Below are positions 12,030 to 34,691 of a stretch of 64,000 bases of DNA, piece by piece. How positions within the stretch are numbered: the first letter of the stretch is position 1; every line of letters starts with the position of its first letter. Location: positions 82,098 through 146,097 of the forward strand of contig CAZCYO010000004.1 in assembly GCA_964503265.1 (NCBI GenBank). Direction: 5' to 3'. The notes beneath the pieces are model-generated. The model made no database searches. It was not told where the DNA came from and was given only the letters and a program-made list of their open reading frames with translations. Made by a program: the position numbers and the translations under genes. This DNA is from an uncultured Gammaproteobacteria bacterium (GTDB lineage Bacteria; Patescibacteriota; Microgenomatia; Levybacterales; UBA12049).

Positions 12030-12032
12030 ACA

Positions 12033-12678: not shown

Positions 12679-12698
12679 TCAGCAAACTCTAAAAAACT

Positions 12699-13118: not shown

Positions 13119-13119
13119 T

Positions 13120-13965: not shown

Positions 13966-14937
13966 ATGCGATTTCTTAGTAAATTTCATCCTAAGTTTTT
14001 ATCTCTCATCGTAACTGGTTTTGTGGTTTTAGGACTACCACTTATGGTATTCGTGTCCAGTCAAAAACAAGATAATAGACAACACGCATCAGCTGCGTGT
14101 GTTCCCACTCCTGCTACTCTAACAGCATATACTCCTACTACTTCCTGTGGAACAGATCTCTTTCGATATGTAAAATTTGGTTGTTCAAATGGATACAGTG
14201 GTAGTTTAGGCAGTGATACAAGCTGCAAATCAACAGCAGAATGGAAAAACTATGCATATGAAGAATGTACTAAACAAACTGTCTGTGTTGAACCTACACC
14301 AATAAATTATTGTCCGACTGTAACTGCGAGTACGATATTCGGTGGAAAATCATGCGGAACGAATTTATATGATAGTGTTTCCTATACCTGTAGTGACGGG
14401 TATAAAGGCTATTTTGGAGGCGATACGAGTTGCAAAACCTGGGAGACATGGATTGGGTATGCTCAAAAAGATTGTGCGAGTAGAACAGTATGTAGCTACC
14501 CAACTGCAATGCCAACTCCAATTTCAACGACAATGCCATACCCGACCTCCCTGCCAACCACGATGCCATACCCTACGACTGTCATGACACCAAAACCTAC
14601 ACTCGCTATGCTAACGGGCACATGGATGAAGGCTACACCGTATTCAGCGAAAATCACAGTAAAAGCTGGTGTTTATACGCCTATAAAAGCATTTACTATC
14701 CAGAACGTTTCGGGAAAACCTTCGTTCTGGGCAACAGCCTCGTTAAGTTTGGATAAGCCAGAAAGTTCTCGATTTATTATTATTGATGGTGCTTCACTTT
14801 TTATAAGTACAACTGGTGTTCCAGTAAATATTAAAGCGACAAGCTCTGCAACAGCTGGAGTCTACAGTGGATTTGTAAGTATAAAAAATAGCTACGAACA
14901 GATAACTCTCCCCGTTGAAGTGATAGTGACAAAATAA
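13966..14937 (+). CDS. Secreted protein with TM anchor, KQDNRQHAS motif and two tandem Cys-rich ~75-aa repeats
   Basis: N-terminal TM plus SQKQDNRQHASAA. The tandem repeats are CGTDLFRYVKFGCSNGYSGSLGSDTSCKS…C…C and CGTNLYDSVSYTCSDGYKGYFGGDTSCKT…C…C. A Pro/Thr linker follows. Confidence 0.45.
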   Translation: MRFLSKFHPKFLSLIVTGFVVLGLPLMVFVSSQKQDNRQHASAACVPTPATLTAYTPTTSCGTDLFRYVKFGCSNGYSGSLGSDTSCKSTAEWKNYAYEECTKQTVCVEPTPINYCPTVTASTIFGGKSCGTNLYDSVSYTCSDGYKGYFGGDTSCKTWETWIGYAQKDCASRTVCSYPTAMPTPISTTMPYPTSLPTTMPYPTTVMTPKPTLAMLTGTWMKATPYSAKITVKAGVYTPIKAFTIQNVSGKPSFWATASLSLDKPESSRFIIIDGASLFISTTGVPVNIKATSSATAGVYSGFVSIKNSYEQITLPVEVIVTK

Positions 14938-15029
14938 TAATTCTCCTTTTAAACTTGTACTGATGTTTACTTAATGGGAAATAAGCCACCATCATTGACT
15001 CTTTAAGCCTAATTCTTTACGCTAGAGAT

Positions 15030-17093
15030 ATGTACGTATTAATGAGTAATAAAAGACGATTATTAACCATAATAGTAATTATATTCCTCATTCTGTCACT
15101 CCCAACAATTATGTATGTCATTAGCACCCGACAAGATATCCGCCAACGAGCTTCGGAGAACGTTTCACTTAATCCAGCATTTGGAAAAACCTGTGAAGTG
15201 AATGATATTGACACATTAATATCTTGTTTTGGGAGATTATATTATGGAAACGACCAAGTGGACGTCATTAAGTTCACGGCTATGGTTAACTGTAATGAAT
15301 TAGATAATTGCGAGGTGTCAATACCAAGTATCCGTCGCCCAGTGCTCATATATGGAGATCCGGGAACAGAAGTAGGGATAAAAAGCACAGGTACCAATAG
15401 CTTACACGTTTTTAGTATCACAAATTCTGATAATGTTGATATTAAAAATATTCAGATAATCGGAAATGGTGAGCCCTGTCCAGAAAATAGATCCTGTTCC
15501 AACGGGTTGACCATCGGAGATTCAACTAATATACGAATCGATAATGTCACGGTCAGAAATGCTAAAAGAGGAATAGGTGTGTATTATTCGGACAAGGTTA
15601 CTATTACGAATAGTACTATCACGAATAATGATCAAGAAGGGATTCATGTCCATTCAGCAACAGATACTAATTTGCTCACTCCAACTTCTGGAACAGTATT
15701 TATTGAAAATAATATCATTTCTGATAACAGGAGATATGGCATATTTATTGAAGGCATCTACCCGAGCATTTCTCCAAGTCACATTTCAGGAAACATATTA
15801 GATCATAACCATACAAAAACATATCCAGGATATTGTATATCAGATACACTAACCGCATGTGGGGGTGGCCAAATTACGATCAAAAACTATACTTCGAATA
15901 TCGTTATCGAGAATAACATCATTCGAAATGGAAGTCTTACAACAAGTATTCTCGATACAGGTGTTTCAGGAATTGAATTAGGAAATCGTACTATTCAAAA
16001 TATACAAATACGTTCAAATGATATTCACGATAATAGCTTTTGGGGAATCAGCTCCTATGAAAATACCGACAACATGACAAATAATACAATCCAAGATAAT
16101 CGTATTTATAATAATGCTAAAGGTACACTCTTACCCTCATTCTCCCAACAAGCCAATAACTGTACGACATCCTCATGCCCGGCACCAACTATCACTGGGA
16201 CTATCTCGCCAACTACAAATTTCACTTCCATTAACGCTACTGGTCAATGTCAAACAACCATTTCCTGGTCAACAAACGCTTCTACAGCAAGTATTTATAG
16301 AGAAGAAAATCTTCTTTCAAATACAACAACAGGCTCTCAATTATTGTCAACAATTCCACCAGGAAAAACACGCTTTGATCTCCTATCGGGAACCATTGAT
16401 AAATCTCGGCTCGCAAGTACTGTCGTATACTGTTTTGCAAGCCCTTCAGTAGTAGCTTCAAATGCGCCTTCAAATTCACCAACTCAGGTACCACTACCAA
16501 CAGTCACGCCGACAGTAACACAACCTCTCCCAACACCTACGCTTATTCAAACACTCACACCTGCTAAAGGAACATTTTCACTTTCTGTCATCCTTCATGG
16601 TATTGGAAATAACGGAGACAATACAAATAAAACAGGAGGAAACCTTACACCTCGAACTACAACTCGAACTGTTTCTGTTGAGTTAACTAATACAGAAGGA
16701 TCTGTACTTCCAGCGTTTCCTTCACAAATCACCTACCAATCAGCTACTCAAAAGTTCGTTGGGGAAGCGAGAATTCCTCAGACTATTCCTAATGGTACAT
16801 ATTCCATACGAATAAAAAGCTCTGGATATCTATCTTCACGCATATCAGGATTCGTTACTATCACCGATAATACAGTGCTCACGTTACCAGTGACTACACT
16901 AACCGTAGGAGACACATTTGTGGATAATAAACTCGACATTTTGGATTTTAATATCATTATGACATGCTGGATCACTTCAGAAGTCTGCTCTCCAGAACAA
17001 AAAATACTTTCAGATCTAGACGATGATGGAAATGTCACCGCTATAGATGACAACCTTTTTATTCGAGAAATAACGATTCAACGTGGTTATTAA
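15030..17093 (+). CDS. Surface protein: TM anchor + RQDIRQRAS motif, right-handed parallel beta-helix (PbH1) repeats, dockerin-like C-terminus
   Basis: Repeated NxxIxNNxI(x)G beta-helix rungs (…VDIKNIQIIGNG…IRIDNVTVRNAKRGIGV…ITNSTITNNDQEGIHV…). The C-terminus, LDILDFNII…DLDDDGNVTAIDDNLFIRE, resembles two dockerin Ca-binding repeats. Confidence 0.55.
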   Translation: MYVLMSNKRRLLTIIVIIFLILSLPTIMYVISTRQDIRQRASENVSLNPAFGKTCEVNDIDTLISCFGRLYYGNDQVDVIKFTAMVNCNELDNCEVSIPSIRRPVLIYGDPGTEVGIKSTGTNSLHVFSITNSDNVDIKNIQIIGNGEPCPENRSCSNGLTIGDSTNIRIDNVTVRNAKRGIGVYYSDKVTITNSTITNNDQEGIHVHSATDTNLLTPTSGTVFIENNIISDNRRYGIFIEGIYPSISPSHISGNILDHNHTKTYPGYCISDTLTACGGGQITIKNYTSNIVIENNIIRNGSLTTSILDTGVSGIELGNRTIQNIQIRSNDIHDNSFWGISSYENTDNMTNNTIQDNRIYNNAKGTLLPSFSQQANNCTTSSCPAPTITGTISPTTNFTSINATGQCQTTISWSTNASTASIYREENLLSNTTTGSQLLSTIPPGKTRFDLLSGTIDKSRLASTVVYCFASPSVVASNAPSNSPTQVPLPTVTPTVTQPLPTPTLIQTLTPAKGTFSLSVILHGIGNNGDNTNKTGGNLTPRTTTRTVSVELTNTEGSVLPAFPSQITYQSATQKFVGEARIPQTIPNGTYSIRIKSSGYLSSRISGFVTITDNTVLTLPVTTLTVGDTFVDNKLDILDFNIIMTCWITSEVCSPEQKILSDLDDDGNVTAIDDNLFIREITIQRGY

Positions 17094-17108
17094 CATGTTT
17101 ATGCTGGT

Positions 17109-20100
17109 GTGATATACTCCACGCATAAACTTATGGGGCTTAAGAATATTTTAGTACGTGCCTTTGCTTTCGTGCTTCTAACACTGGGTATCGTTACTGC
17201 TGCCGCAACTCCTGCACACGCAGCACCTCCTCAAGACTTTCAGACACAGCTTCTTGTTGGTTCAGGATTATCTAATACTACCGGGTTTGGAATCGCACCT
17301 GATGGGAGAATTTTTATCTTACAGAGAACAGGAGAAGTAAAAGTCTATAAAAATGGCGCCCTCCTGCCTCAACCCTTTACTACCTTCTCAACCGTGATCA
17401 CTGGAGATCGAGGACTCATAGGGATCGCATTTGATCCAGACTTCTTAACCAATCACTATGTGTATTTTTATTTGACTGGGTCTGATCAATATAACCGAGT
17501 TATCAGACTCGACGCACGAAATGATACAGCAGTTGGTGATCAAATCATTATCTTCCAAACATCAACACCTTCTGAACTTCTTCACGTCGGAGGAACAATC
17601 CAGTTTGGTCCTGATGGAAAGTTATATATCGCAGTCGGCGACAATGGCTATGGCCCAAATGCGCAAGATCTAGGCAATCCTCATGGGAAAATTCTTAGAA
17701 TTAATAAAGATGGAAGTACACCAGGAGACAATCCATTCGTGAATATAGAGGGTGTCGACCCCCAAATTTACGCATATGGACTGAGAAATCCCTTCAGGTT
17801 TCAATTCGATGAAGTTAGCGGCAGAATGTATGAGGGAGATGTCGGAGCTGCAGACTGGGAAGAAATAAATACCATTACTCCGGGTGGAAATTATGGGTGG
17901 CCAGCAGCTGAGGGAAATTGCACAGATTGTCCATATAGTAATCCTATTTTTACCTATAACCATGCAAACCAAAGTTCATCAATAACAGGTGGCCCTGTCT
18001 ATCACAAATCCCTTTTCCCTTCAGAATACCAAAATAATCTCTTTTTTGGCGACTATGCTCGAGGATTTATAAGAAGATTGCAATTTGACGACTCTGGAAA
18101 CGTTCTTGGAGATTATGACTTTGACATGAATGCGGGAAGTGTCGTAGATTTAAAAGTCGGAAACGATGGAGGATTATATTATATAACCTATTTCCCATCT
18201 CGTCTCTATAAAATTACATACTCGACAGGGAACCATTCGCCTATTCCCAATGCAGATGTCGATACTATGAAAGGAATAAGTCCCCTAACTACTCACTTCA
18301 CGAGTAGTGGGACATATGACCCAGATAACGACCCACTCTCCTATTTCTGGAATTTTGGTGATGGAACGAGCAGTTCTGAGGCAAATCCTACAAAAATATA
18401 CACAAAAAACGGTAACTACATAGTCACACTAACTGTAAGAGATAGTAATAATTTATCTAATCAATCTATTCCACTTGTTATTCAGGTTGGACTACCACCA
18501 GCAGTTATTATTGGGAGCCCCAAAGAAGGAGCTACATATCATGCAGGAGACACCATAGCATATACAGCATTTGCAAGTGATGGTGCAGGATTTGACCTTG
18601 GCGATGAAAGCATCTCAACTCAGGTACTTCTTCATCATGATACTCACGCTCATCCTTTCTATGGACCAATAACAGGAAGATCTCATGAATTTACTATCCC
18701 TATAAATGGTGAGCCGTCAGCGAACACTTGGTATGAGATTATTATCACAGCAACTGATGCAAACGGTCTTACAAACACAAAATCTGTCACTATTTTTCCT
18801 ATTAAATCAACCTTCCATTTTACGACCGTTCCAGCCGGAATTTCTCTTAAAATTGACGGCCAGCCATTTGCAACTCCTAAAAACATTCAGGGTGTTTCAG
18901 GTTACCAGCGTGAAATAGAAGCATATTCCCAAGACACAAATGGCCACTCTTACCAATTTAGCCATTGGTCAAATAATGGACCTGCCAGACAAACAATCAC
19001 AACAACTGATCAAGATACAAATTTTATTGCGTACTTTACAGACATAGGTTCAATCGATACTCCAGCCAGTAACCTCCAAGCAGCAGTCCAAGCAAACAAC
19101 GTCACTCTTTCATGGAACCAAAGTAGTGGAATATATATGAATCTTGATGCATCAGATAGTGATCATATTCAAGTGTATACAAATGCTGATTATACAGGAA
19201 CAAACGTTCTTGATGGTGGTGTGGGTGGTGGCATAACATCATGGACAATCCCAATTAATAATTCTGGTACATATAATTCTCTTCAGCCTGGAAGAACATA
19301 TTACGCTCGTGTGTATAGCTGGAATGCACCGTGTAATTGTGCCAATGGGACGACTACATCATTCACCACTTCAGGAACTGCAACAAATGGAGACAAGCCA
19401 CCAACCAATCTTTCTATTACTGGACAAACAAATCAAATAGTCCTTAATTGGTCACCAAGTACTGGAATATATACCAATCGTGATGGTAGTGACCATGATC
19501 ATATTCAGGTCTACTCTAATCCAAACTTTACGGGGACAAACGTGCTCGATGGTGGTGTCGGTGGTGGCATAACATCATGGTCTATCCCAATTAATACCAC
19601 GGGCAGTTATAACTCTGTTCAGCCTGGCAAAACATACTATGCACATATTTACAGCTTTAATGCACCGTGTAATTGTAGTAATGACACAAGAGGTAGCTTT
19701 ACTGTTCCTCAAGCAACTGGAGGGACTGGAGAAAAACCTGCAACGAACCTACAAGTAGCAGTTCAAGAATCAAGCGTTATCCTTTCATGGAACCAAAGTA
19801 GTGGAATATATATGAATCGTGATGCCTCAGATAGTGATCATATTCAGGTGTATACGAACCCTGATTATACAGGAACGAAAGTTCTTGATGGTGGTGTGGG
19901 TGGTGGAAATACTTCATGGACTATTCCTATTAACGATTCAGGTTCATATAATTCTGTTCAACGTGGTAAGACATACTATGCTCGTGTGTATAGCTGGAAC
20001 GCCAGTTGTAACTGCAGCGATGGAACAACGACGAGCTTTACTGTGACTGGAACTACTAATGATCATGGAGCGAGTAATCTCCAAGCTCTTAGCTCAACCA

Positions 20101-20381
20101 GTCAAGTCACTCTTTCCTGGTTACAAAGTTCAGGGATATACATGAATCGTGACGCCTCAGATAGTGATCATATTCAAGTGTATACGAACCCTGATTATAC
20201 AGGAACGAAAGTTCTTGATGGTGGTGTGGGTGGTGGAAATACTTCATGGACTATCCCTATTACTAACTCAGGCGTATATAATTCACTAAATTCTGGAACC
20301 ACCTACTATGCTCGCGTTTATAGCTGGAATGCACCATGCAACTGTAGTACGGGCACTGCAATTAGCTTCATAACCCCATAG
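17109..20381 (+). CDS. Secreted multi-domain protein: PQQ-type soluble sugar dehydrogenase-like beta-propeller + PKD domain + four FN3-like tandem repeats
   Basis: Signal peptide (…PAHA/AP). The glucose/sorbosone dehydrogenase family motif is HVGGTIQFGPDGKLYIAVGDNG. The PKD motif is FWNFGDGTSS. There are four ~110-aa repeats (…LSWNQSSGIYMNRDASDSDHIQVY…LDGGVGGG…YYARVYSWNAPCNCS…). Confidence 0.6.
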   Translation: MIYSTHKLMGLKNILVRAFAFVLLTLGIVTAAATPAHAAPPQDFQTQLLVGSGLSNTTGFGIAPDGRIFILQRTGEVKVYKNGALLPQPFTTFSTVITGDRGLIGIAFDPDFLTNHYVYFYLTGSDQYNRVIRLDARNDTAVGDQIIIFQTSTPSELLHVGGTIQFGPDGKLYIAVGDNGYGPNAQDLGNPHGKILRINKDGSTPGDNPFVNIEGVDPQIYAYGLRNPFRFQFDEVSGRMYEGDVGAADWEEINTITPGGNYGWPAAEGNCTDCPYSNPIFTYNHANQSSSITGGPVYHKSLFPSEYQNNLFFGDYARGFIRRLQFDDSGNVLGDYDFDMNAGSVVDLKVGNDGGLYYITYFPSRLYKITYSTGNHSPIPNADVDTMKGISPLTTHFTSSGTYDPDNDPLSYFWNFGDGTSSSEANPTKIYTKNGNYIVTLTVRDSNNLSNQSIPLVIQVGLPPAVIIGSPKEGATYHAGDTIAYTAFASDGAGFDLGDESISTQVLLHHDTHAHPFYGPITGRSHEFTIPINGEPSANTWYEIIITATDANGLTNTKSVTIFPIKSTFHFTTVPAGISLKIDGQPFATPKNIQGVSGYQREIEAYSQDTNGHSYQFSHWSNNGPARQTITTTDQDTNFIAYFTDIGSIDTPASNLQAAVQANNVTLSWNQSSGIYMNLDASDSDHIQVYTNADYTGTNVLDGGVGGGITSWTIPINNSGTYNSLQPGRTYYARVYSWNAPCNCANGTTTSFTTSGTATNGDKPPTNLSITGQTNQIVLNWSPSTGIYTNRDGSDHDHIQVYSNPNFTGTNVLDGGVGGGITSWSIPINTTGSYNSVQPGKTYYAHIYSFNAPCNCSNDTRGSFTVPQATGGTGEKPATNLQVAVQESSVILSWNQSSGIYMNRDASDSDHIQVYTNPDYTGTKVLDGGVGGGNTSWTIPINDSGSYNSVQRGKTYYARVYSWNASCNCSDGTTTSFTVTGTTNDHGASNLQALSSTSQVTLSWLQSSGIYMNRDASDSDHIQVYTNPDYTGTKVLDGGVGGGNTSWTIPITNSGVYNSLNSGTTYYARVYSWNAPCNCSTGTAISFITP
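19064..20378 (+). repeat. Four near-identical ~330-bp tandem coding repeats (FN3-like modules)
   Basis: Long identical DNA stretches recur, e.g. caagtgtatacgaaccctgattatacaggaacgaaagttcttgatggtggtgtgggtggtggaaatacttcatggactat at ~19841 and ~20171. Confidence 0.7.
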
Positions 20382-20503
20382 GAGATACCTTTTCTCTTCA
20401 CATAGCTAACAGATAGCAAAGAGAAGAAGGTATACAACTCTTTATATGCATTATTGCTTCTTCTCTTGACATTTTAATTTGGCTTTCTCTATGCTATAAA
20501 GAG

Positions 20504-23257
20504 ATGAATTTTATTGTTGAAAGATTAAGCCAATTACTAAGATCAGTTACAAATAAAAAATCACTGACGATTCTTTCTGTCGCACTTGTTCTCATCGCAC
20601 TTCCTCTAACAGTCTACATAGGCCAACAACGACAAGATATCAGACAGCGAGCTTCTGGTGGACCACTTGGATATGCACCAGCTGGTACATGTAGCGATCA
20701 GTCATTTTCAGATCTCACTACAGCTCAAGGCACGGTGACAGATCTTGCACTGGCTGCATCTTGTCTGAATCAATCAGTCTATAACTATTGTGTCGTTCGT
20801 GGATTTGGAGATAATACCTTCCGACCAAATGATAACCTCACCCGAGCAGAATTTGTGGCCTTTATCGTGAGATATCATGGAAATATATTTCCGGCAGGAC
20901 ATCCTCAGCGCTGGGATCTTATGACAACAGCTGAAATAGATAGTCTTCCCGTATTTCCAAATAAAATCACGAATGCAACAACAGGCAAGGAACAATTTCG
21001 CCTCTTAGACATCCCTTCTAGCTACCCGCTTGCACGAGAAATCTATACATCACAGAAATATGGATTTATTAAAGGCTATCAGGATGGCACCTTTCAACCA
21101 AGTGTTACTTGGAATTTTGGCTTTCATGGAATAACCCGAAATGATCAAGGCATTGATCCTAATTATAATGACTCATTTAATAATCCCTATAATTTCGCAG
21201 CTGAGTCCGGTCAAATAAAGCGTGGAGAATTTATAAGTCAGCTTTACCAATACGGGAAAGACCCAGTTCGCGCAATAAACGGACAAATCCAATTAGCAGC
21301 ATGTTTCCAGCCGACAGCTGTACCACCGACAGCGACATCAGTTCCTGTCACACCAACCAATCCTCCAACATCAAGCGGTGGAACAGTAACACAAAATGCT
21401 AGTTGCTCTAATACACTATCTGACGTACCCACATCACTCAACCAAGCCATGGGATGCTACCATAACACGACAGCAAGTGGCTACTGCATCGTTCGAGGAA
21501 ACGGCACGACACTTGGTCCAAATGATAACTTATCCAGAGCTGAGTATGTAGCATTTATCGTTAGATACCATAACCAAGTTTTCCCTGTCGGAAATGCCAA
21601 TCACTGGGACCTCATCACTAGAGCTGAATACGATGCACTTGATGGAACAACAGGTAAAAAGAAATTTCCAGACGTAAATCCAGACACATACTCACTCTGG
21701 CAAGAAATTTATACATCACAGAAATATGGATTTGTTGTCGGACAGCTCGATGGTAACTTCTATCCAAACGATCTCTGGACATTTGGTTTCCATGGAATTA
21801 CCAGAAACGATCAGTGGCCAGCTGGAACAGGATATGATTTTAATACGGCTGGGAATTCTATTAGTAGAGGAACATTTATCCAGCAGCTTTTTGATTATGG
21901 TAAAACCAAAGCACAACTCACCGCCTGCTTCCCAGTCTCTACCACCTATATGATTTCAGGTGTCGTTAGTGGAGTAACCGCAGCGACAAATATGGTATGG
22001 AATGTTCCAAATGGTGCATTACCTCCAGTTCCATTCCAAACAGATGCATCAGGAAATTATGCAATTCGAGATCTGAGCGCTGGTACATATTTAGTATCTG
22101 TTGTCTCACCAAGTGGAAAGACAGCAACCCCTCTATCGTATACAGTTAAAGTGGGAGATGGCTGTACTGTTACACCAGCTGGTGAGAGTTCCTGTGGAGC
22201 AGATGGTAATGCAAGTAAGGTAAACTTCTCTGTTACCCAAACACCTCCAGTGGTAACACTCACCGCTCCAGCGAACTTAAGACCTTCTGGATCAATTACC
22301 GAAGGTCAAACTACAGTACAGTGGGATGCCGTTATTGGTGCAGATTCTTATGAATATTCACTTTTGGATCAGACGCTTAACACTAATTTACCAGGTTGTG
22401 TAGTAAAAGGTGGTACAAATAACGATACTGGATGCGTACTCACATTCCCAGCCACCCAACAGAGTTATAATTTTCTGGCGGGACATACGTATCGCATAGG
22501 TGTAAGCGCCATAACGACTTCTTCATCAGGTGTTATCGCACGTGGGCCTGAATCTTCAGTAATAATTACTGCCGCAGCAGCCGTCAGTCAAACACCATCA
22601 ACATCTCCTACGCAAGCTCGTATCAACCTTGAGGTAATCTTTAGACAACATGGTATTGGACTAGCAGCAGATAATGCTAACCCAAATGCAACACCATTAG
22701 TAGTTAGTGGAACCATCATGCCGTTCCCAACACCGGTAGACCTCTTTAGAAATAGAGCTGTGACTGTCTACCTTTCGACAGGAACATCTCTTAATGACGG
22801 AACGCCACAGTATGAATATCAAAAAACTGGAACAGCATTGTACTCACCTGATAACAGTGGGTTTTATAAAGGAGTTATTGATCTAGGAACAGATGTTCCA
22901 GCAGGACAATATATTGTGGCAGTAAGAACAAGTAATTCTCTTTCTCAACAGGCTACAGGATTTGTAACAATTACACCTACAAACACCGTGATTGTTAACT
23001 TTCCGGCCCTTGTTTCAGGAAATGTTTATGACTCAACAATCGATAATACTACTCCCACCAACGATAACCAACTCGACATTCTCGATTACAATGCAATTAT
23101 GGATAACTGGCTGAATCCAGATCTATGCACTACCAGTAATAACCAGACTGTTTGTAACACCATTCGAACACGAGCCGACCTCAATGCAGATGGAGTAGTC
23201 GATGTACTTGACTATAATCTCTTTATCCGAGAACTCAGTGTTCAACGAGGAAGATAA
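20504..23257 (+). CDS. Surface protein: TM anchor + QRQDIRQRAS motif, multiple SLH-like modules, Ig-like region, dockerin-like C-terminus
   Basis: SLH-like segments (…VVRGFGDNTFRPNDNLTRAEFVAFIVRYH…; …GFIKGYQDGTFQP…; …CIVRGNGTTLGPNDNLSRAEYVAFIVRYH…; …GFVVGQLDGNFYP…). The C-terminus, LDILDYNAIM…DLNADGVVDVLDYNLFIRE, is dockerin-like. Confidence 0.55.
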   Translation: MNFIVERLSQLLRSVTNKKSLTILSVALVLIALPLTVYIGQQRQDIRQRASGGPLGYAPAGTCSDQSFSDLTTAQGTVTDLALAASCLNQSVYNYCVVRGFGDNTFRPNDNLTRAEFVAFIVRYHGNIFPAGHPQRWDLMTTAEIDSLPVFPNKITNATTGKEQFRLLDIPSSYPLAREIYTSQKYGFIKGYQDGTFQPSVTWNFGFHGITRNDQGIDPNYNDSFNNPYNFAAESGQIKRGEFISQLYQYGKDPVRAINGQIQLAACFQPTAVPPTATSVPVTPTNPPTSSGGTVTQNASCSNTLSDVPTSLNQAMGCYHNTTASGYCIVRGNGTTLGPNDNLSRAEYVAFIVRYHNQVFPVGNANHWDLITRAEYDALDGTTGKKKFPDVNPDTYSLWQEIYTSQKYGFVVGQLDGNFYPNDLWTFGFHGITRNDQWPAGTGYDFNTAGNSISRGTFIQQLFDYGKTKAQLTACFPVSTTYMISGVVSGVTAATNMVWNVPNGALPPVPFQTDASGNYAIRDLSAGTYLVSVVSPSGKTATPLSYTVKVGDGCTVTPAGESSCGADGNASKVNFSVTQTPPVVTLTAPANLRPSGSITEGQTTVQWDAVIGADSYEYSLLDQTLNTNLPGCVVKGGTNNDTGCVLTFPATQQSYNFLAGHTYRIGVSAITTSSSGVIARGPESSVIITAAAAVSQTPSTSPTQARINLEVIFRQHGIGLAADNANPNATPLVVSGTIMPFPTPVDLFRNRAVTVYLSTGTSLNDGTPQYEYQKTGTALYSPDNSGFYKGVIDLGTDVPAGQYIVAVRTSNSLSQQATGFVTITPTNTVIVNFPALVSGNVYDSTIDNTTPTNDNQLDILDYNAIMDNWLNPDLCTTSNNQTVCNTIRTRADLNADGVVDVLDYNLFIRELSVQRGR

Positions 23258-23327
23258 TTGCTGTGCTTGACAAAAAAATCACTCTGTGTTTAAATCTCAA
23301 TTAAGGTTGTACGACCTATAAATTAAA

Positions 23328-26300: not shown

Positions 26301-27245
26301 GTAAGTATATCCTGGTCTCCAAGTACAGGCAGTTATACCAACAGAGATTTCAGCGATAACGATCATATCCAGATTTATTCTAACTCGAACTTTACGGGAA
26401 CGAAAATACTTGATGGCGGTGTGGGTGGAGGTACAACATCATGGAATATTCCAGTGAATACTTCTGGTTCATATAATTCTGTCAAACCAGGCCTAACATA
26501 TTACGCTCGCATCTACAGTTTCAACGCTCCTTGTAACTGTAGTAACGGAACAAATGGCTCCTTTACCGTACCTGGCACAAATGGTGGAAGTGGTGACTCT
26601 CCTGCCACCAATCTTCAAGCAGGAGTACAGTCCTCTCAAGTTACTTTATCCTGGTCACAAAGCAAAGGAGTATATATGAATCGTGATACTTCAGACAGTG
26701 ACCATATCCAAGTCTACTCGAATTCGAATTTTACCGGGACGAAAGTTCTTGATGGTGGTGTCGGTGGTGGCACACAGAGCTGGACAATCCCAGTCAACAA
26801 TTCTGGCGCATATAATTCTGTTCAACCGGGCAAAACGTATTATGCTCGGATTTATAGCTTTAATGCTCCCTGTAATTGTAGTGACGGAACAACGACGAGC
26901 TTTACAGTAAACGGCACAACGAACGATCATGCTGCAAGTAATCTTCAAGCGGCAGTGCAATCGAACCAAGTCGTTTTAAGCTGGGCACAAAGTAGTGGTA
27001 CGTATATGAATCGTGACACATCAGATAGTGATCATATTCAGGTATATACAAATCCTGACTTCAGTGGCACAAAAGTATTAGATGGTGGTGTGGGTGGTGG
27101 AACGCAAAGCTGGTCAATTCCTATTACTAACTCAGGTACATACAATTCACTTAACTCGGGAACGACGTACTACGCTCGGATTTATAGCTTTAATGCTCCT
27201 TGTAACTGCAGTAGTGGTACCACTACAAGCTTCAGGACCCCCTAA
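23328..27245 (+). CDS. Surface FAD-dependent oxidoreductase-domain protein (PF12831-like) fused to five FN3-like tandem repeats
   Basis: N-terminal TM, then the FAD Rossmann motif DVVVVGGGTGGVSAAIQAARQGVRVGLIESTDWLGGQ. Five ~110-aa repeats follow, homologous to those in the 17109 gene. Confidence 0.6.
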   Translation: MKHTKRPDSRFFFKLFSKYSKNYNEHVIWENPFKTRRIVTRLFLLSLPVLLFTLYHVYTLVTNAAVNTSYDVVVVGGGTGGVSAAIQAARQGVRVGLIESTDWLGGQAAAAGVSNMDEGANERSSGIYSEFVNRVASKYGGAQYIHKCYFGGNNICPEPHVVRQVLEEMVAGTGRIDVYYRHSVTSVLKSGNIVTGVTTHSSVDNANNQFGAKVIIDATEYGDLLPKAGIAYRIGSQNSGSINTAACIQDITYTAVVKRYDGGIPSYLQITTAPPGYNSTIESRFSEMVTSSGARDNGNAPYYWSWIHHNAYRGMADSTRPSTTDAGSGAASITKTGINFANDYPAEKPYNNTAGNTTLSVRYIEDTAYRKQADCDAKLKTIQFIYYMQKSGQNWSVADDEGFDTSYNQSENSCSNIPTAFKEIEKRLPVMPYVRESRRMIGVTTYTSSQLRAQKQSNRLDGSSVKAVNFSNSIAIGGYDDDLHNCNDASTLDSSIDLISDKGMGGGTFQIPLEALIPQSVDGFIAAEKNISQSRLVNGATRLQPITMLTGQAAGALGAISAQSNRQPRTIKPIEVQLALANAKSYLALAQFNDVTPGNAYFAGVQIASLYNVFYGDGSGNFNTSGVLTRGTGAILLTRLLNIPTNGTEDDAITQIRLRGYTTASSNAAYNPGNTLIKGDLAVLLARALGQSPGSVDGALSSLSSLGIPVECTNSGCAGDSVTRGIFANAAAYSLKYIQNGITPTTPIPQGNPASNLQVNTQPTQVSLSWSSSSGIYANTNASDGDHIQIYSNSNFTGTRVLDGGVGDGTQSWTIPVNNSGEYNSVQPGKTYYARIYTFNAPCNCSDGVMGSFTVPNAPIIGEVAQPASDLSISAQAAQISLTWTASSGKYTNTNANDNDHIQVYSNPNFTGTKVLDGGVGGGTQSWTIPVNNSGAYNSVQPGKTYYARIYSFNAPCNCSDGTTGSFTVPGNSPTTDKPASNLSINAQSSQVSISWSPSTGSYTNRDFSDNDHIQIYSNSNFTGTKILDGGVGGGTTSWNIPVNTSGSYNSVKPGLTYYARIYSFNAPCNCSNGTNGSFTVPGTNGGSGDSPATNLQAGVQSSQVTLSWSQSKGVYMNRDTSDSDHIQVYSNSNFTGTKVLDGGVGGGTQSWTIPVNNSGAYNSVQPGKTYYARIYSFNAPCNCSDGTTTSFTVNGTTNDHAASNLQAAVQSNQVVLSWAQSSGTYMNRDTSDSDHIQVYTNPDFSGTKVLDGGVGGGTQSWSIPITNSGTYNSLNSGTTYYARIYSFNAPCNCSSGTTTSFRTP
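25582..27242 (+). repeat. Five tandem ~330-bp coding repeats, with a ~150-bp perfect duplicate at ~26071 and ~26741
   Basis: Identical segments ttcttgatggtggtgtcggtggtggcacacagagctggacaatcccagtcaacaattctggcgcatataattctgttcaaccgggcaaaacgtattatgctcggatttatagctttaatgctccctgtaattgtagtgacggaac occur twice. These account for the spurious antisense ORFs in the track. Confidence 0.7.
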
Positions 27246-27260
27246 TAATAGCGCATACTG

Positions 27261-30200
27261 TATGAAAAAACATATTCACCACAGATTTCAATTTGCTCAT
27301 CTTTTGGTAAATTCGTTGTTATCGATAAAAAGGTTCCCCATAAAAAAAAATCACCACTATACACTCTGGGAAAATCCATTTACTTATAAAAAAATTGTTC
27401 GCACACTTTCTCTGTTTATCCTCCCTATACTTATTTTTACTGGCTACCATACATTCACTACACATAGTCTTGCTGATAGTTCTCGTTCATTTGATGTTGT
27501 TGTTGTAGGTGGTGGGACTGGTGGTGTAAGTGCTGCTATCCAAGCAGCTCGTAATGGTGCAAGCGTTGCTATTGTCGAAGAAACGGACTGGATCGGAGGA
27601 CAAATGACTGCTGGTGGAGTCGGAACACTTGATGAAGGAATGGACTGGTCGACAAACCCAGCAACAGGATACGAAAGAAACTCTGGTATCTATAAAGAAT
27701 TTCTTGATCAAATAACGGCAAAATACGGTGGTATCCAAAACTTACATAAATGTTACTATGGAAATTTTGCAATTTGTTTTGAACCAAAAGTAGGTCAAGA
27801 CGTACTTAGTAGTATGCTTTCAAACGCTGGCGTTCAGGTCTTTACTCGTGAGAAAGTAACAAGTGCATTGAAATCTGGAACTACTGTAACCGGGATTGTT
27901 GCACATAATACACTGACCAATAGTACTGATCAATTTAACGCAAAAGTTGTCATCGATGCAACTGAATATGGTGATGTGATTCCACTCACCGGCGCTGCTT
28001 ATCGAGCCGGAAAATCAACTTCAAGCGCACTTGATCTCAACGCCCCAATTCAAGATATAACCTACAAGTTAGTGATGAAACGATATGACACAGGTATTCC
28101 AGCAAACTTAAAGATAACCCAGGAACCACCTAACTATCAAGCCGTTAAACCGCTCTTTGCGGGGTATCTCTCCCAATCAGCACCAATTAGAGACTGGGGT
28201 GATGGAGTCACAAGTCCCTATACAAATCCGCGGTCTTGGGTACAGTACATTGCATATCGCGGAATAGCTGACTCTAGTCATCCATCATCACTCACAGTAG
28301 GTTCATTTGCTGATGCAGCAGCGCTCACAAAATCAGGAATTAATCTCGCCAATGACTATCCAGCAACAGTAAGATTTTTAGAAGATCCAGCGAACCGTAC
28401 ACAAGTCACCTGCGAAGCAAAGTTACGAACGATTCAAATGCTTTATTACATCCAGCAGGAAATGGCACAAAACTGGTCTGTCGACACAGATGAGGGATTC
28501 GATACATCGTATAACCAAACCCAAAACAACTGTGCAAACATCCCCGCAGCCTTTAAAGAAATCGAAAAACGTATGCCACTGATTCCCTACGTTCGAGAAA
28601 GTCGACGAATAATTGGCGTTTCAACGATAACAAGTGCATCGATGAGAGCACAAAAAACAATCAATAGAAGTGATTCTGCAGCAGTAAATGCAGTTGATGA
28701 TCAGACGTCTATCGCACTTGGTGGATATACAACTGACCTTCACTGTATGAACGGTAATCCTTGTACACAAGACCAATTTGATAGCAGTATTGATAGTATT
28801 TCAGATATGCTTCCTGACACACATTCACTCTTTCAAGTTCCACTTGGCGCACTTATTCCACAAACAATTGATGGATTTATCGCAGCTGAGAAGAACATTT
28901 CCCAAGGGCGCATTCCAGCCGGTGCAACAAGACTGCAACCCATAACGATTCTAACAGGACAGGCCGCCGGAGCACTCGCAGCAATTGCTGCTAAATCAAA
29001 TAGACAACCACGAACAGTCACCGCGCTTGAAGTACAGCAAGTATTACTCGCAGCAAATGATCCGCTGACACTCTATAAATTTAACGATGCACCTCAGGGA
29101 GGCGCATTCTGGCAGTCAATTCATATAGCATCACTCTATGGCATTATGACTGGCAATGGTGGGAATTTTAATACTCCAGACACACTCGACCGAGGAACAG
29201 CTGCTATCATTCTGACTCGGTTATTTAACATCACAACAAACGGCACTACAGAAGATGCAATCACTCAGCTTCGAAATAGAGGTATTTCTAAAGCAACGTC
29301 TAATACAGACTTCGCCGCACAAAATCCACTCTTAAAAGGCCAGCTTGCCTTATTTATCGCGAGAGGACTTGGGAAAAATCCTGCTGACGCAACTGCTGCA
29401 TTTACGTGGACTGTCAGTCAAGGTATTTCTGTTGGATGTCAAAGTAGTGCGTGTGAGCAGGAAAGTGTCAGTCGTGGACAAATGGCTGAAACAGTGACAA
29501 CTTCCCTTCCTTTTATCGGCAGTGCTGTCACTCCAGTGACACTTCCTCCACCGACACAAGTACAACCAACTCCCACAACTATCCCGACAACGACAGCAAA
29601 TGATCCAATTGGTAATATGGACGGCATTAGTACAACAGGACAAGTAACTGGTTGGGGTTGTGATGTTGACGCAACAAATCATACAACAGATATTCACTTT
29701 TATGCGGATGGCGGTGGATTCGGAACCTTTCTGGGAGTGATAACGGCTAAGCAAACAGGCGAAGCCGCACTCGCTCCATTTTGTGCAGAATCGACTTCCC
29801 ATCGATTTACATTTGATCTTCCGACAACGGTTAAAGATGGCAAACCACATAACATATATGCTTACGCAATTGGCGTCGGTGGAGGCGCTGCATATAAACT
29901 ACTTTCAAATGCACCAAGATACTTCCAAAACGGTGGAAATGCTATTCCAAGTAACACAAGTCCTCAGTTAACCGGCTGGCAAGACTATGTTACACCGACT
30001 GGCGATTTGGTTGGGTGGGCCTGTGATAAAGCAAATAACAGTTCACCTGTTAGAATTGATATTTATATCGACGGTGGCGGATTTGGTCAGTTCATCGGCT
30101 CAACAACTGCTGATAAACAAGGTGATGACTCTGCTACGCTAGTCGGACTCTGTGGTGGCGGAAATGGAAACAGACGATACATTTTCCCTCTTCCAGATTC

Positions 30201-30663
30201 AATGAGAAATACCGGCAATCATACCATCTACACCTATGCAATTAGCGCTGGAGATGTAACACACATCCTCATTCCAAATTCAGGGCAAGCTTTTTCACTT
30301 GGGAATAAAGATCCATATGGCTTTCCTGACTATGTTGATACCACCGGACGAGCACTCGGGTGGGTTTGTGACCCAGATGATTTTAACCAAGCAGTCACCG
30401 TTCATTTCTACCTCGACGGCCCAGTTGGGCAAGGAACGTTTATCGGGCAAGCTACTGCGAGTATTCCAGATGAGAAAGCAGTTGGCTACTTCTGTGGTGG
30501 AGTAAATGCACATCGTTTCGCTTGGACACTCCCAGAAAGCGCGCTCACTGGATCACATCAACTTTATGTATATGGCAGTAATATTGGAACTGGAAATACA
30601 CAGCTCCTTGGTGGAGGCCCTATTTCAACAACTGATCGTAAGCAAGCCCCAGCGGGACTATAA
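27261..30663 (+). CDS. Surface FAD-dependent oxidoreductase-domain protein (paralogue 2) with three C-terminal ~120-aa GW(G/A/V)CD repeats
   Basis: The start is taken at MKKHIHH… after the upstream stop; the track ORF 27082 overlaps the previous gene. It has the same TM + DVVVVGGGTGGVSAAIQAAR…WIGGQ domain as 23328. The C-terminal repeats are GWGCDVDATNH…FYADGGGFGTF…, GWACDKANNS…IYIDGGGFGQF…, GWVCDPDDFNQ…FYLDGPVGQGTF…. Confidence 0.6.
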
Positions 30664-30709
30664 ATAGTAAATAAAGCTTGACAAATAAAGACAATTTTCT
30701 CATGATAGA

Positions 30710-33616
30710 GTGAGCGCGATAACCTATATTAGCATGATTGATAGACATACGTTTAAACATCTTCCAGCACTAGTAAAAAAAGCTAAATATTATCCATTCG
30801 TTACACGCCATAAAAAATCTAGTTTATTTATCCTCCTTCTCCTAGTAACTATTCTTCCGATAAGTATTCTCTTCTCACTTCAACGAACAAGAATTTCAAG
30901 TAATGCAAACAGTACGCTCTCGTACGATATCGTCATCGTTGGCGGTGGAACTGGTGGTGTGAGTGCTGCAATTCAAGCTGCCAGACAAGGAACACGTGTC
31001 GCTATCGTTGAACCAACTGATTGGCTAGGTGGACAAATGAGTGCTGCTGGCGTATCCACTATGGATGAAGGATACAGTCGATCTGGTGTAATCATTGAAA
31101 GAAGTTCAGGAATTTATCGTGAATTTACCCAAAAAGTAATTAGTAAATATAATGGACTCGCATATATGCATAAATGTTATTGGGCCGCTGATTCACTTTG
31201 TATTGAACCAAGTGTCGCGAAAAATGTATTAGGAGAAATGGTAACGAGTACCGGTAATATTGATATCTATTACCGAACGAAAGTTACGCAAGTCCAGAAG
31301 ACTGGTAATACAATAACTGGTGTGCTGACTCACTCAACTGCCTCAAACGATGATAATATTCTTGAGGCAAAAATTGTAATCGACGCAACAGAATATGGAG
31401 ATGTTATACCATTAACAGGAGCTGATTATCGTCTTGGCAAATATGTCGCAAGTAGTGGTATTAACGAAAGCGTCTTAAATACATGTATGCAGGACATTAC
31501 CTATCCTGCGACAATTAAACGCTACGATAATGGCATTCCAGCAAATTTACAGATTACACAAGAGCCACCTAACTACCAAGCTGCACGATCACTCTTTATA
31601 CAAGATGTCTCTAAATCTACAGCGCCGGGAGTATCTGATAATCCTCCCTGGTCTTTCACCCAGTTTTTAGGGTACAGAGGCATACCAGATAAATCTCGAC
31701 CGTCTACATCAACACCCACGACAGTCGCAGGACTACAAAGCATTACAAAGACAGGGATAAATGTATCAGGAAATGACATCGCTGAGTCCCTTCGATTTAT
31801 CCAAGATACTACTTTTAGACAAAACCAAAGTTGCGAAGCAAAATTGCGAACGATTCAATATATTTATTACATTCAAAAAGAACTAAACCAACCATGGTCA
31901 GTCGCAGATGATGAGGGGTTTGATACGCTATATAACACTACAGATAACAACTGCACGAATATTCCAGCTGCATTTAAAGAAATTGAGAAGCGCTTACCAC
32001 TTGCACCATACGTTCGAGAAAGCAGGCGCATTATTGGACTAACTACATTAACCTCATATCAGATTCAAGCACAAAAAGACTCTGACCATAAAACAGTCGC
32101 ATCTGTTAAGCCAACTTCATTTGAAAATAGTATCGCCGTTGGTGGATATAATATGGATTTACATAATTGTAATACCTCATCTACCATCGATCCATCAATT
32201 GATAGCACAGGCAGTGTGAATGGTAATCATGAAAAGTTCCAAGTTCCCCTTGAATCACTCATTCCAGCCTCAATTGATGGTTTTTTAGTTGCAGAGAAAA
32301 ATATATCTCAAAGTAGAATAGCAAACGGTGCAACCAGACTTCAGCCAATTACGATGTTGACTGGACAGGCTGCCGGAGCGCTTGCTGCAATTTCCGTTAA
32401 AACTAACCGTCAACCACGTTCTGTTGTCCCAATTGAAGTACAGAGTATTCTTCTTGATGGGAAAGCGCCAATTTCCCTCTATGACACAGTCGATGTAACA
32501 CCAGATAACACTCGCTGGAAAGCAATCCAGATCATCTCTAACTATAATATTATGGTAGGCTATGGTGATGGGAGGTTTGGTCCAGATGACGCAATGACTC
32601 GTGGAACAATGGCGATTGTGTTAACCCGTCTCCTGCAAATCCCAACAGATAATACACCTCTTGATGCATACAATAAATTAAAAGAGAAAGGCATTACCAC
32701 TGCTGCATCATACACAGAATTTGGACCAAATAGTCAGCTCTTAAAAGGTGAACTAGCACTTTTCATAGCCAGAAGCTTAAATCAATTCCCAGCAGATGGA
32801 CCTGAAGCCATAACATACCTACAAACACTCGGGATTACGCTCGGTTGCAATGGAGCAACTCCTTCATCATGCAACACTCAAACAAGTAGTAGAGCTGACA
32901 TGGCAGAAGCAGTATCTGCTACATTAATCTATATCAAAATTAATAAAGGAACTGGAGAAATCACACCACAACCGACACAAGTCGTTAGTACTCCAGTTCC
33001 CACAACAATCAGTATCAGTCCAACTACAGAACCAACAACAGCTATCGCTTGCCCAACTGAGATTCAAGGATTTTATGATGTCCCATCAGACTACCAACCT
33101 GCAACGAAATGTTTTAATGAACGCTATTGTATCGTTCGTGGATTTTCAGCACACATGCTTGGACCTGATGACATCTTAACTCGTGCTCAGTATGTGGCAT
33201 TTATCTTACGATATCACGATCAAATTGTCGGAGACTGGTCGCTTATGGGTCAAAATGAAGTAAACGCATTACCTAAATATCCTAATAAAATAACAAATCT
33301 AGAAACTGGTAAACAACAATTTCTCTTTTCTGATGTCGATCCATCAAATTCACTTGCGCGCGAAATCTATACCTCACAAAAATATGGATTCATCCAAGGA
33401 TACCAAGATGGAACATTTCTCCCTGATGAACAGTGGTATTTTGGTTTCCACGGCGTAACGCGAAATGACGAATGGCCACTTGGATCACCGTATACATTCA
33501 CTCAAGTAGGGGATCGTGTAAAACGAATCGACTTTCTACGAGGTCTTTATACCTATGGTAAGTATCACAATACGCTTCCTGCCTGTAATGATCTTCCAAC
33601 TATCCAATATCCGTAG
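30710..33616 (+). CDS. Surface FAD-dependent oxidoreductase-domain protein (paralogue 3) with C-terminal SLH-like modules
   Basis: TM + DIVIVGGGTGGVSAAIQAARQGTRVAIVEPTDWLGGQ. The C-terminus has CIVRGFSAHMLGPDDILTRAQYVAFILRYH and GFIQGYQDGTFLP (SLH-like), homologous to the C-terminal part of 20504. Confidence 0.6.
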   Translation: MSAITYISMIDRHTFKHLPALVKKAKYYPFVTRHKKSSLFILLLLVTILPISILFSLQRTRISSNANSTLSYDIVIVGGGTGGVSAAIQAARQGTRVAIVEPTDWLGGQMSAAGVSTMDEGYSRSGVIIERSSGIYREFTQKVISKYNGLAYMHKCYWAADSLCIEPSVAKNVLGEMVTSTGNIDIYYRTKVTQVQKTGNTITGVLTHSTASNDDNILEAKIVIDATEYGDVIPLTGADYRLGKYVASSGINESVLNTCMQDITYPATIKRYDNGIPANLQITQEPPNYQAARSLFIQDVSKSTAPGVSDNPPWSFTQFLGYRGIPDKSRPSTSTPTTVAGLQSITKTGINVSGNDIAESLRFIQDTTFRQNQSCEAKLRTIQYIYYIQKELNQPWSVADDEGFDTLYNTTDNNCTNIPAAFKEIEKRLPLAPYVRESRRIIGLTTLTSYQIQAQKDSDHKTVASVKPTSFENSIAVGGYNMDLHNCNTSSTIDPSIDSTGSVNGNHEKFQVPLESLIPASIDGFLVAEKNISQSRIANGATRLQPITMLTGQAAGALAAISVKTNRQPRSVVPIEVQSILLDGKAPISLYDTVDVTPDNTRWKAIQIISNYNIMVGYGDGRFGPDDAMTRGTMAIVLTRLLQIPTDNTPLDAYNKLKEKGITTAASYTEFGPNSQLLKGELALFIARSLNQFPADGPEAITYLQTLGITLGCNGATPSSCNTQTSSRADMAEAVSATLIYIKINKGTGEITPQPTQVVSTPVPTTISISPTTEPTTAIACPTEIQGFYDVPSDYQPATKCFNERYCIVRGFSAHMLGPDDILTRAQYVAFILRYHDQIVGDWSLMGQNEVNALPKYPNKITNLETGKQQFLFSDVDPSNSLAREIYTSQKYGFIQGYQDGTFLPDEQWYFGFHGVTRNDEWPLGSPYTFTQVGDRVKRIDFLRGLYTYGKYHNTLPACNDLPTIQYP

Positions 33617-34685: not shown

Positions 34686-34691
34686 CTCTTC

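Follow-up and report, generated by a model that had tools for sequence, protein, structure and literature searches.

Organization of the interval between rplA and rplJ

The 64 kb stretch of contig CAZCYO010000004.1 analysed here, referred to as the window, carries the ribosomal protein genes rplKA and rplJL on either side of a block of seven large genes; this text deals with that block (the island, genes i1 to i7) and with the rplA-rplJ boundary in which it lies. According to the listing of open reading frames (ORFs) and to the Pfam scans used for the gene map, a secE-nusG-rplK-rplA block (11811-13917), with secE-nusG directly 5′ of rplK as in the canonical cluster (Pfam, 11811-12678), is followed by seven plus-strand genes (13966-33616) encoding 323 to 1305 amino acids (aa) and all co-oriented with rplKA. 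The rplA stop codon (13917) and the rplJ start codon (34942) are about 21 kb apart, this distance being taken up by the seven genes and by about 1 kb of non-coding spacer, and the contiguity rplK-rplA-rplJ-rplL is broken. An earlier note on this DNA had read the gene order as rplKA, seven large genes, rplJL, a terminator and an orphan gene, an order borne out by the ORF listing and Pfam. Judging from its protein matches, the window is part of a Levybacteria-like genome of the candidate phyla radiation (CPR; Patescibacteria): the best L1 matches among species-representative genomes are Patescibacteria/Levybacteria metagenome-assembled genomes (MAGs) with 45-55% identity, and metagenomic protein matches reach 86% (L1) and 88% (L10). 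Over the whole window, ARAGORN found no tRNA gene and Rfam gave no match at the gathering threshold. The genes on both sides of the boundary, the island and the spacer are as follows.

11811-12029, plus strand: secE (Pfam SecE, E = 1.6e-18; same gene call in the related locus L001)
12034-12678, plus strand: nusG (Pfam NusG, E = 3.7e-28, plus KOW)
12699-13118, plus strand: rplK, encoding L11 (Pfam Ribosomal_L11_N and Ribosomal_L11)
13120-13917, plus strand: rplA, encoding L1 with an N-terminal extension (Pfam Ribosomal_L1, E = 6e-31); the slot is bounded on the left by its stop codon
13966-14937, plus strand: i1, exported Cys-rich protein of 323 aa with an N-terminal helix, a QDNRQHA motif and a weak APP_Cu_bd match
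15030-17093, plus strand: i2, exported right-handed beta-helix protein with a dockerin-like C-terminus (Pfam Beta_helix, 1.3e-14; NosD)
17109-20381, plus strand: i3, exported PQQ-type soluble sugar dehydrogenase with a PKD domain and four 112-aa repeats
20504-23257, plus strand: i4, exported SLH-anchored protein with a dockerin-like C-terminus (four SLH stretches, 6.4e-21)
23328-27245, plus strand: i5, exported PF12831 flavoprotein with five 112-aa repeats (FAD_oxidored, 7.5e-78)
27262-30663, plus strand: i6, exported PF12831 flavoprotein; additional paralog flanked by the orthologs of i5 and i7 (FAD_oxidored, 9.3e-79)
30710-33616, plus strand: i7, exported PF12831 flavoprotein with a C-terminal SLH region (FAD_oxidored, 4.7e-86; SLH, 4.3e-19 and 4.7e-21)
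33617-34655, no strand: AT-rich non-coding spacer (GC content 0.35; no ORF above 76 aa)
34942-35490, plus strand: rplJ, encoding L10, with corrected start (Pfam Ribosomal_L10 over residues 12-108; AAGGAG Shine-Dalgarno sequence just upstream)
35584-36000, plus strand: rplL, encoding L7/L12 (Pfam Ribosomal_L12_N and Ribosomal_L12)

Three of the start codons call for comment. That of rplJ is most likely at 34942 and not at 34840, given the AAGGAG Shine-Dalgarno (SD) sequence and homologs of 181-182 aa; that of rplL is probably the ATG at 35608, the alignment with the ortholog of the relative L172 beginning at residue 9; and i6 most likely starts at 27262, just past the i5 stop codon. In this clade (the window and the L003-L015 orthologs), L1 is a protein of 260-290 aa with a K/E-rich N-terminal extension of about 70 aa or more, and the Pfam L1 match spans only residues 139-256 of the 265-aa L1 of the window.

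All seven island products present an N-terminal hydrophobic signal or anchor, and SLH cell-wall anchoring domains were found in i4 and i7. The label of a surface-protein island, proposed earlier, is therefore right as to export, but several of the products are enzymes. The i3 protein matches Pfam GSDH (4.7e-60) in addition to PKD, and the structures 2ism (1e-37) and 3a9g (1e-35) of the Protein Data Bank (PDB). Its 336-nt repeats lie at 19113-20417 and those of i5 at 25635-27281. For the three PF12831 flavoproteins, PDB sequence matches are restricted to the Rossmann N-terminus of the PF12831 module, the AlphaFold model of the i7 catalytic module (pLDDT 91) matched nothing more specific than the FAD superfamily in general (TM-scores of 0.2-0.3), and a literature search on the function of the module returned nothing relevant. 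Exported PF12831 flavoproteins fused to SLH domains form an abundant, uncharacterised cargo family. With Dockerin_1, the C-terminal ends of both i2 and i4 reach 21.4 bits, against a Pfam cut-off of 22.9, and a homologous tail in the relative L006 scores 26.2; no cohesin or scaffoldin was detected among the window proteins scanned with Pfam, a protein with cohesin and dockerin being present only in the relative L098. The SLH domains and dockerin-like modules would hold the products of this region at the cell surface.

A motif, Q-x-Q-D-[IL]-R-Q-[RH]-A-[SA], is conserved directly after the N-terminal hydrophobic helix of exported proteins, at 9063, 14068, 15132 and 20633 of the window (in up966, a protein encoded 5′ of secE, and in i1, i2 and i4) and in the relatives L085 (8490 and 13090), L086 (1744) and L087 (869). 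The motif was counted eight times in the genus-level group and a single time in 1.7 Mb of control sequence translated in six frames. It may serve, in this lineage specifically, as a signal for protein processing or sorting.

The same boundary in related genomes

The comparison covers about 23 Levybacteria-like loci with enough downstream sequence (designated by L and a number), and non-CPR controls were fetched with the same query. Only three of the clade loci (L010, L091 and L100) have rplJ adjoining rplA, the gaps being of 128, 335 and 391 bp. About ten have 2-7 kb between the two genes, in one case with rplJL inverted, and about ten show no rplJ in the available sequence, which extends up to 10 kb. 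In the non-CPR controls, rplL lies 0.6-1.1 kb past rplA, almost without exception. The splitting had been described in the earlier note as unusual, and a shared interruption in relatives as speaking against the proposal made there. The description holds relative to most bacteria and fails within the lineage, in which the split is the majority state (3 of about 23 adjacent); the relatives are mostly interrupted too, although their contents differ. Eight loci from Dehalococcoidia, Chloroflexi and Uhrbacteria (L079, L024, L034, L039, L041, L050, L055 and L062) gave no rplJ or rplL match downstream of rplA, and these may reflect either the limited sensitivity of tblastn or further lineages with a split cluster.

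The boundary is a slot in the sense that, from one related genome to another, the core genes on its two sides stay the same while what lies between them changes. The content of the slot, with glycoside hydrolase families abbreviated GH, is as follows.

L085 (L1 79%): GH16 plus GH5, GH10, an SLH protein and at least two PF12831 proteins
L086 (L1 86%): GH16
L089 (L1 62%): two S8 proteases, one with a dockerin
L098: sulfatase with CBM96, a protein with cohesin and dockerin, and a phosphoesterase
L006: GH26 with dockerin
Other loci: small genes, often on the opposite strand (methyltransferase, GT4, GDSL lipase, PaaX/Cas2-like)

DNA similarity between the window and L085 or L086 spans nusG-rplK-rplA and ends at the rplA stop codon (13915-13917), and similarity to L087 likewise ends there. 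Relationships between cargo proteins are nevertheless visible in the closest relatives: the C-terminus of i2 is 47% identical to that of the GH16/GH5 protein of L085, the C-terminus of i4 is 61% identical to that of a 734-aa protein of the same locus, and the best match of i6 outside the window is FAD_987 of L085 (53% identity overall, 77% in the C-terminus). On the other side of the slot, the relative L172 (L10 87% identical, more than 24 contigs) has three PF12831 genes followed by a 1.4 kb spacer and rplJ-rplL. In this relative, the ortholog of i5 (FADb, 74% identical over the length of i5) directly adjoins the ortholog of i7 (FADc, 78%), with no ortholog of i6 between them, and i6 is therefore an extra copy in the window genome. 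The distal half of the island can hardly be read as an insertion, as had been proposed, since the i5 and i7 orthologs, the spacer and rplJL are kept together in L172.

N-terminal export helices were predicted for 27 of the 41 slot genes and for 37 of the 134 other genes of the same loci (P = 1.5e-5). The neighbouring boundaries, upstream of secE (where up966 is located) and downstream of rplL, are also variable. In a rough neighbour-joining tree of concatenated NusG, L11 and L1, the three genomes with adjacent rplA and rplJ are scattered among split ones, which suggests, as far as gene order and phylogeny can tell, that the site has been repeatedly opened or closed. Searching the literature for glycoside hydrolases or SLH domains in Levybacteria or Microgenomates, and for dockerins in CPR bacteria, turned up nothing relevant.

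The predicted rplJ-rplL transcription unit

Three candidate regulatory features accompany rplJ and rplL.

34656-34685, plus strand: rplJ promoter-like site of sigma-70 type (TTGACT, 18 nt, TG-TATACT; 10 of 12 matches, extended −10)
34677-34941, plus strand: rplJ leader, resembling a diverged L10 leader (hairpin and U-tract at 34842-34860, AAGGAG SD sequence)
36060-36091, no strand: bidirectional intrinsic terminator (perfect 16+16 nt palindrome with A5/U6 flanks; −25.1 kcal/mol, z = −6.9)

The promoter-like site is nearly invariant between the window, L172 and L175, and the start of the leader is conserved among close genomes. Directly upstream of rplJ in relatives, the Rfam model RF00557, whose gathering score is 44 bits, scores 63.9 bits in L009, 51.7 in L100, 48.0 in L175, 46.6 in L010 and 41.7 in L172. 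The strong terminator announced after rplL is confirmed by the 32-nt palindrome. The promoter and long leader attributed to rplJL stand in part: the promoter is conserved and the leader looks like a diverged L10 leader, but its length is only about 250 nt and not 1.2 kb. With its predicted promoter, leader, SD sequence and terminator, rplJL is to all appearances a complete autonomous unit, and since it keeps these elements its separation from rplKA would cost nothing in regulation. Already in Escherichia coli, rplKA and rplJL form two operons, and the L10(L12)4 complex of Bacillus subtilis regulates rplJL through a leader attenuator. As the two are separate units there, the gap would disturb neither of them.

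The spacer in front of this unit yielded only noise when searched for gene remnants (tblastn with all ORFs of the relatives and of the window; blastn). It contains blocks that are 70-90% identical in L172 and L175, near 33746-33830, 34188-34228 and 34543-34583, and a long AT-rich spacer of at least 0.9-1.4 kb precedes rplJ in all three closest genomes. A DnaA-box-like inverted pair is present at 34560-34583, with TTATCCACA at 34560 and TTATTCACA on the minus strand at 34575; the best-conserved block of the spacer holds TTATCCACA-N6-TGTGAATAA, about 75 nt upstream of the −35 box of rplJ. A replication origin in the spacer was considered and rejected, there being only two DnaA-box-like sites in it, 25 such sites over the window for 20.4 expected, and no turn in GC skew.

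A probable plasticity region between two core operons

We favour, with a probability of about 0.62, the interpretation of the interval as a plasticity region that has grown in place at a permissive boundary between two core operons, and not as a mobile element or an assembly error. According to this model, secE-nusG-rplK-rplA and rplJ-rplL would be two self-sufficient transcription units in this lineage, and the boundary between both would tolerate inserts, with genes, mostly for exported enzymes, being repeatedly gained, lost and rearranged. The slot opens exactly at the rplA stop codon, and its content varies from lineage to lineage. The recombination hotspot suggested in the earlier note is thereby retained in the sense of gene turnover, with content differing in each related lineage and a break exactly at the rplA stop codon, and abandoned in the sense of an island of acquired DNA.

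Several observations weigh against this interpretation. The neighbour-joining tree has no support values, and several events are not firmly separable from one old split followed by turnover and occasional deletion; the relatives are mostly MAG contigs, many of which end before the other side of the slot is reached. In the export enrichment, the comparison set consists mainly of housekeeping genes, and related genomes are not independent samples. In the window itself, RF00557 reaches only 23.8 bits, below its threshold, and the attenuator-like hairpin of the leader is thermodynamically weak (−9.6 kcal/mol, z = −1.1); the promoters, leaderless starts and attenuator are all deduced from sequence. 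Finally, the joins inside the repeat modules of i3 and i5 have no independent confirmation, and the other assemblies that reproduce the junctions may share reads with the window.

An alternative to which we grant a modest chance is that a single ordinary rearrangement in the ancestor of the clade split the cluster, that changes have since proceeded at the background rate without any hotspot, and that the three adjacent genomes are secondary deletions. The predominance of the split across the clade and the lack of support values in the tree both suit this scenario, as does the equal variability of the adjoining boundaries: up966 and the protein encoded at the corresponding position in L085 share only 30% identity, and the position downstream of rplL is occupied by an ORFan in the window, a GH39 gene in L172 and convergent giant genes in L175. 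However, L010, L091 and L100 fall in three parts of the tree, beside slot-bearing sisters, and the cargo is non-homologous between most lineages. Moreover, at about 80% L1 identity the rplA-proximal half of the slot is already wholly replaced, with the breakpoint at the stop codon.

Predicted promoters of the island genes and the question of an expression platform

TTGACA boxes are located at 13928, 20466, 23267 and 30678, the last three within 1 nt of where the earlier note had placed them, and the first lies 38 nt upstream of i1. Of the 32 such boxes in the window, 7 are followed by a start codon within 100 nt, for 0.95 expected (P = 6e-5), and four of these seven precede i1, i4, i5 and i7. 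In front of i2 the sequence TTGACT-17-TACGCT-6-ATG is found at 14995-15032, and in front of i4 TTGACA-18-TATGCT-8-ATG at 20466-20506. A TANNNT element ends 5-9 nt before the start codon in 12 of the 38 window genes, with a peak at 6 nt (P = 1e-4), and SD sequences precede only two of the 38 (rplA and rplJ); in both position-specific tests the starts of 2 of the 38 genes, secE and nusG, were incorrect. A general sigma-70 scan of the island detected no enrichment (47 sites for 49.7 expected).

These signals lead us to infer that most island genes are transcribed from compact promoters of their own, set against the start codon and giving leaderless or near-leaderless transcripts. This leaderless-looking style is apparently genome-wide and not a property of the island. 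The claim that each gene has its own promoter can be upheld for the four genes with a perfect TTGACA and for i2 with its TTGACT (four to five of the seven), and not for the rest, the general scan being unenriched. The form TTGAC[AT]-N17-TACGCT-N6-7-ATG is present before i2 and also before the first slot gene of L085 (8346-8445) and of L086 (1600-1642).

The position of the island next to ribosomal operons raises the possibility of a selected expression platform, in which exported-enzyme genes would have been recruited there and would be expressed highly and in step with growth through read-through from rplKA or through chromosomal position. The seven genes are co-oriented with rplKA and no terminator-like hairpin was found after rplA, so that some read-through into i1 is possible; the cargo is likewise co-oriented and exported in the subclade of the window, in L098 and in L006, and slot genes are enriched for N-terminal export helices. 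We nevertheless regard such a platform as unlikely: the island genes have promoter-like sites of their own against their start codons, the cargo of L003, L005, L008 and L101 is on the opposite strand or cytoplasmic, and about half of the 64 kb window encodes large exported or surface proteins anyway (among them up966, w778 and a 2809-aa protein), so that the enrichment in the slot may just reflect the content of the flexible genome.

A more specific version, which we hold to be slightly less probable still, makes the rplA-rplJ boundary a dedicated, selected cassette site, in which compact units, each with the leaderless promoter TTGAC[AT]-N17-TACGCT-N6-7-ATG and the sorting motif Q-x-Q-D-I-R-Q-R-A, would be swapped at the rplA stop codon by an as yet unknown mechanism. 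If it were true, the extracellular enzyme repertoire would come under the dosage and growth-rate regime of a ribosomal protein locus.

Growth in place of the island

The proteins i5, i6 and i7 share about 50% identity with one another over about 740 aa, whereas PF12831 proteins outside the genus-level group reach at most about 43%; the three paralogs therefore arose within the lineage. Over the C-terminal 445 aa, i3 and i5 share 73% identity, the N-terminal SLH region of i4 is 49% identical to the C-terminus of i7, the tails of i2 and i4 are related, and the 336-nt unit is present in nine copies. The island, native as to codon composition, has expanded in place by tandem duplication (i5, i6 and i7) and by module exchange, which involved the C-terminal repeats of i3 and i5, the SLH modules of i4 and i7 and the dockerin-like tails of i2 and i4.

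The opposite view, that a horizontally acquired genomic island or integrative element lies between rplA and rplJ, can draw on the appearance of the locus, a large accessory-looking block with sharp boundaries, content unlike that of relatives and a GC content slightly above that of the flanks (0.40-0.44 vs 0.38). We consider it very improbable. The GC content at third codon positions (GC3) of the island genes (0.28-0.32) is within the range observed elsewhere in the window (0.22-0.39), and a foreign origin was rejected on this basis; the GC excess is confined to codon position 2, that is to amino-acid composition, and is shared by other large exported, native surface proteins outside the island. 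Pfam scans of the seven island proteins and flanking genes revealed no integrase, recombinase or transposase, and the repeats spanning the boundaries are only A-rich chance matches of 17-19 nt and not att-type repeats, which led us to reject a mobile element as well. In addition, the island paralogs are closest to one another, paralogs or shared modules also occur outside the island (up966), and the rplJ-proximal half is orthologous and syntenic in relatives. The term accessory DNA, used for the island in the earlier note, is thus inappropriate, with GC3 unchanged and with no mobility genes, tRNAs or boundary repeats found.

Validity of the assembly

The junction rplA-i1-i2(-i3) is also present in the assemblies Logan SRR12487046 and ENA ERZ4216102. 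The joins i3-i4-i5 and i6-i7-spacer-rplJ-rplL are reproduced in Logan; the ENA assembly covers the spacer, rplJ, rplL and the start of the following gene (o634, see below), and Logan continues from this gene onward. The only breaks in these other assemblies are at the palindromic terminator and within the C-terminal repeat modules of i3 and of i5. The arrangement is thus probably not an artefact, as judged from these contigs, and the assembly error at 13.9 or 34.8 kb that had been envisaged at the outset is contradicted by the reappearance of both junctions. A chimera of assembly or binning at about 13.9 or 34.8 kb, which the origin of the window from a metagenome-assembled contig and the internal repeats where other assemblers broke would allow, has next to no credibility in view of these junctions, of relatives from other samples with rplA next to an exported-enzyme gene (L085 and L086) or with the order FAD-SLH-spacer-rplJ (L172), and of the uniform composition.

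Regions flanking the split cluster

Two further genes occupy the variable positions on either side of the split cluster.

8865-11765, plus strand: up966, exported protein of 966 aa with an SLH-like region, at a second variable position just 5′ of secE
36142-38046, plus strand: o634, cytoplasmic ORFan of 634 aa in place of the gene that follows rplL in relatives; no N-terminal helix

The up966 protein has an N-terminal helix, a QQDIQQHA motif and a weak SLH match, and shares 27% identity with the SLH modules present in i4 and i7. For o634, which is devoid of the N-terminal signal or anchor of the island products, no match was found in Pfam, PHROGs or the PDB, and among 1.84 billion representative proteins it matched only itself, which justifies the designation of orphan gene. 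The corresponding position is occupied by a GH39 gene in L172 and by a convergent giant gene in L175.

No rpoB- or rpoC-like sequence was found anywhere in the window, in agreement with the absence reported earlier. The earlier note had, however, taken rpoB after rplL to be nearly universal. With a query able to pick up the rpoB of other phyla at 40% identity, a copy no more than 3 kb from rplL was seen in just 12 of 66 non-CPR controls (many of them Oscillospiraceae) and in none of eight clade loci. A lack of rpoBC at this position would therefore be typical of the lineage. Many of the Oscillospiraceae controls (L059, L127, L130 and others; Faecalibacterium and related genera) have a gene of about 592 aa after rplL, and not rpoB.

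Just past o634 and outside the island, a small minus-strand gene (38048-38257) encodes an excisionase/MerR-like helix-turn-helix protein (HTH_17, 1.6e-10). The segment at 38-40 kb has a GC content of 0.51, compared with about 0.39 elsewhere, and contains three ORFs on the minus strand (73, 141 and 193 aa). Ribosome-binding sites of the GGAGG type, otherwise rare in the window, precede two of them; none of the three has a Pfam or PHROG match. The Logan assembly (L176) reproduces this high-GC segment (38048-40050), which by its composition looks more like acquired DNA than does the island.

Farther downstream, a minus-strand ORF of 2809 aa (45156-53585) has almost no Pfam signal; it is 34% identical over about 350 aa to a 1935-aa protein encoded on the minus strand downstream of rplL in L172, which has a weak Peptidase_S74 match. 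At 54593-61323, ORF sizes alternate (362/327, 376/311 and 365/303 aa), as would be expected if a pair of genes were present three times in tandem. In this putative pair, the second gene has a weak match to WxLIP_PGBD (WxL-interacting peptidoglycan-binding) and the first is unusually GC-rich at codon position 2 (0.55-0.59); two of the three pairs are preceded by a TTGACA box at a distance of 37-43 nt.

Significance and comparison with known systems

A cluster described in textbooks as universally conserved is routinely broken in a large uncultured lineage, while the regulatory elements of both halves are retained. Synteny-based checks of annotation or binning that expect rplKAJL-rpoBC will therefore misjudge CPR genomes. 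In these small-genome bacteria, which are probably dependent on a host or community, a flexible repertoire of exported enzymes sits between core operons (glycoside hydrolases, proteases, sulfatases and flavoproteins with SLH or dockerin anchors), and the slot could guide searches for functions that separate closely related CPR populations.

Compared with the canonical secE-nusG-rplKAJL-rpoBC locus of E. coli, B. subtilis and Vibrio, the window is alike in the genes, order and orientation of both blocks and, as predicted, in the separate promoters of rplKA and rplJL, the putative L10 leader before rplJ and the terminator or attenuator after rplL. It differs in the insert of about 21 kb, the absence of rpoBC after rplL and the diverged L10 leader.

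With the SLH and cohesin-dockerin systems of Firmicutes (cellulosome-type), the window shares exported enzymes with SLH domains (i4 and i7) and dockerin-like tails (i2 and i4), and its relatives carry GH16, GH5, GH10, GH26 and a protein with cohesin and dockerin in the same slot. In contrast to these systems, no cohesin or scaffoldin was detected in the window, the dockerin scores are just below threshold, and the enzymes are oxidoreductases and not glycoside hydrolases.

The locus has been called widely conserved in a recent preprint, which also describes genes separating rplKA from rplJL in Bradyrhizobium diazoefficiens and Actinomyces israelii (bioRxiv 10.1101/2025.04.14.645983, 2025). With such precedents, the split as such is no peculiarity of the window. 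As in the window, non-ribosomal genes lie exactly between rplA and rplJ and both halves are kept; the insert of the window is larger, the split extends across the clade, and the cargo, mainly exported enzymes expanded by duplication, is not constant even among close relatives. Mycobacterium tuberculosis has a similar split between rplKA and rplJL, with rpoB displaced as well.

Chromosomal hotspots flanked by core genes, or genome plasticity regions, are an established concept of pan-genome studies. The window resembles them in having core genes on both sides, different accessory content between genomes and a sharp breakpoint at a gene end, and differs from them in showing no sign of mobile-element traffic or foreign composition, in having grown largely by in-place duplication and domain shuffling, and in the similar variability of its neighbouring boundaries. 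The rplA-rplJ interval of the window is a new and large case of known gene-order plasticity, with a mild, lineage-wide bias towards exported enzymes.

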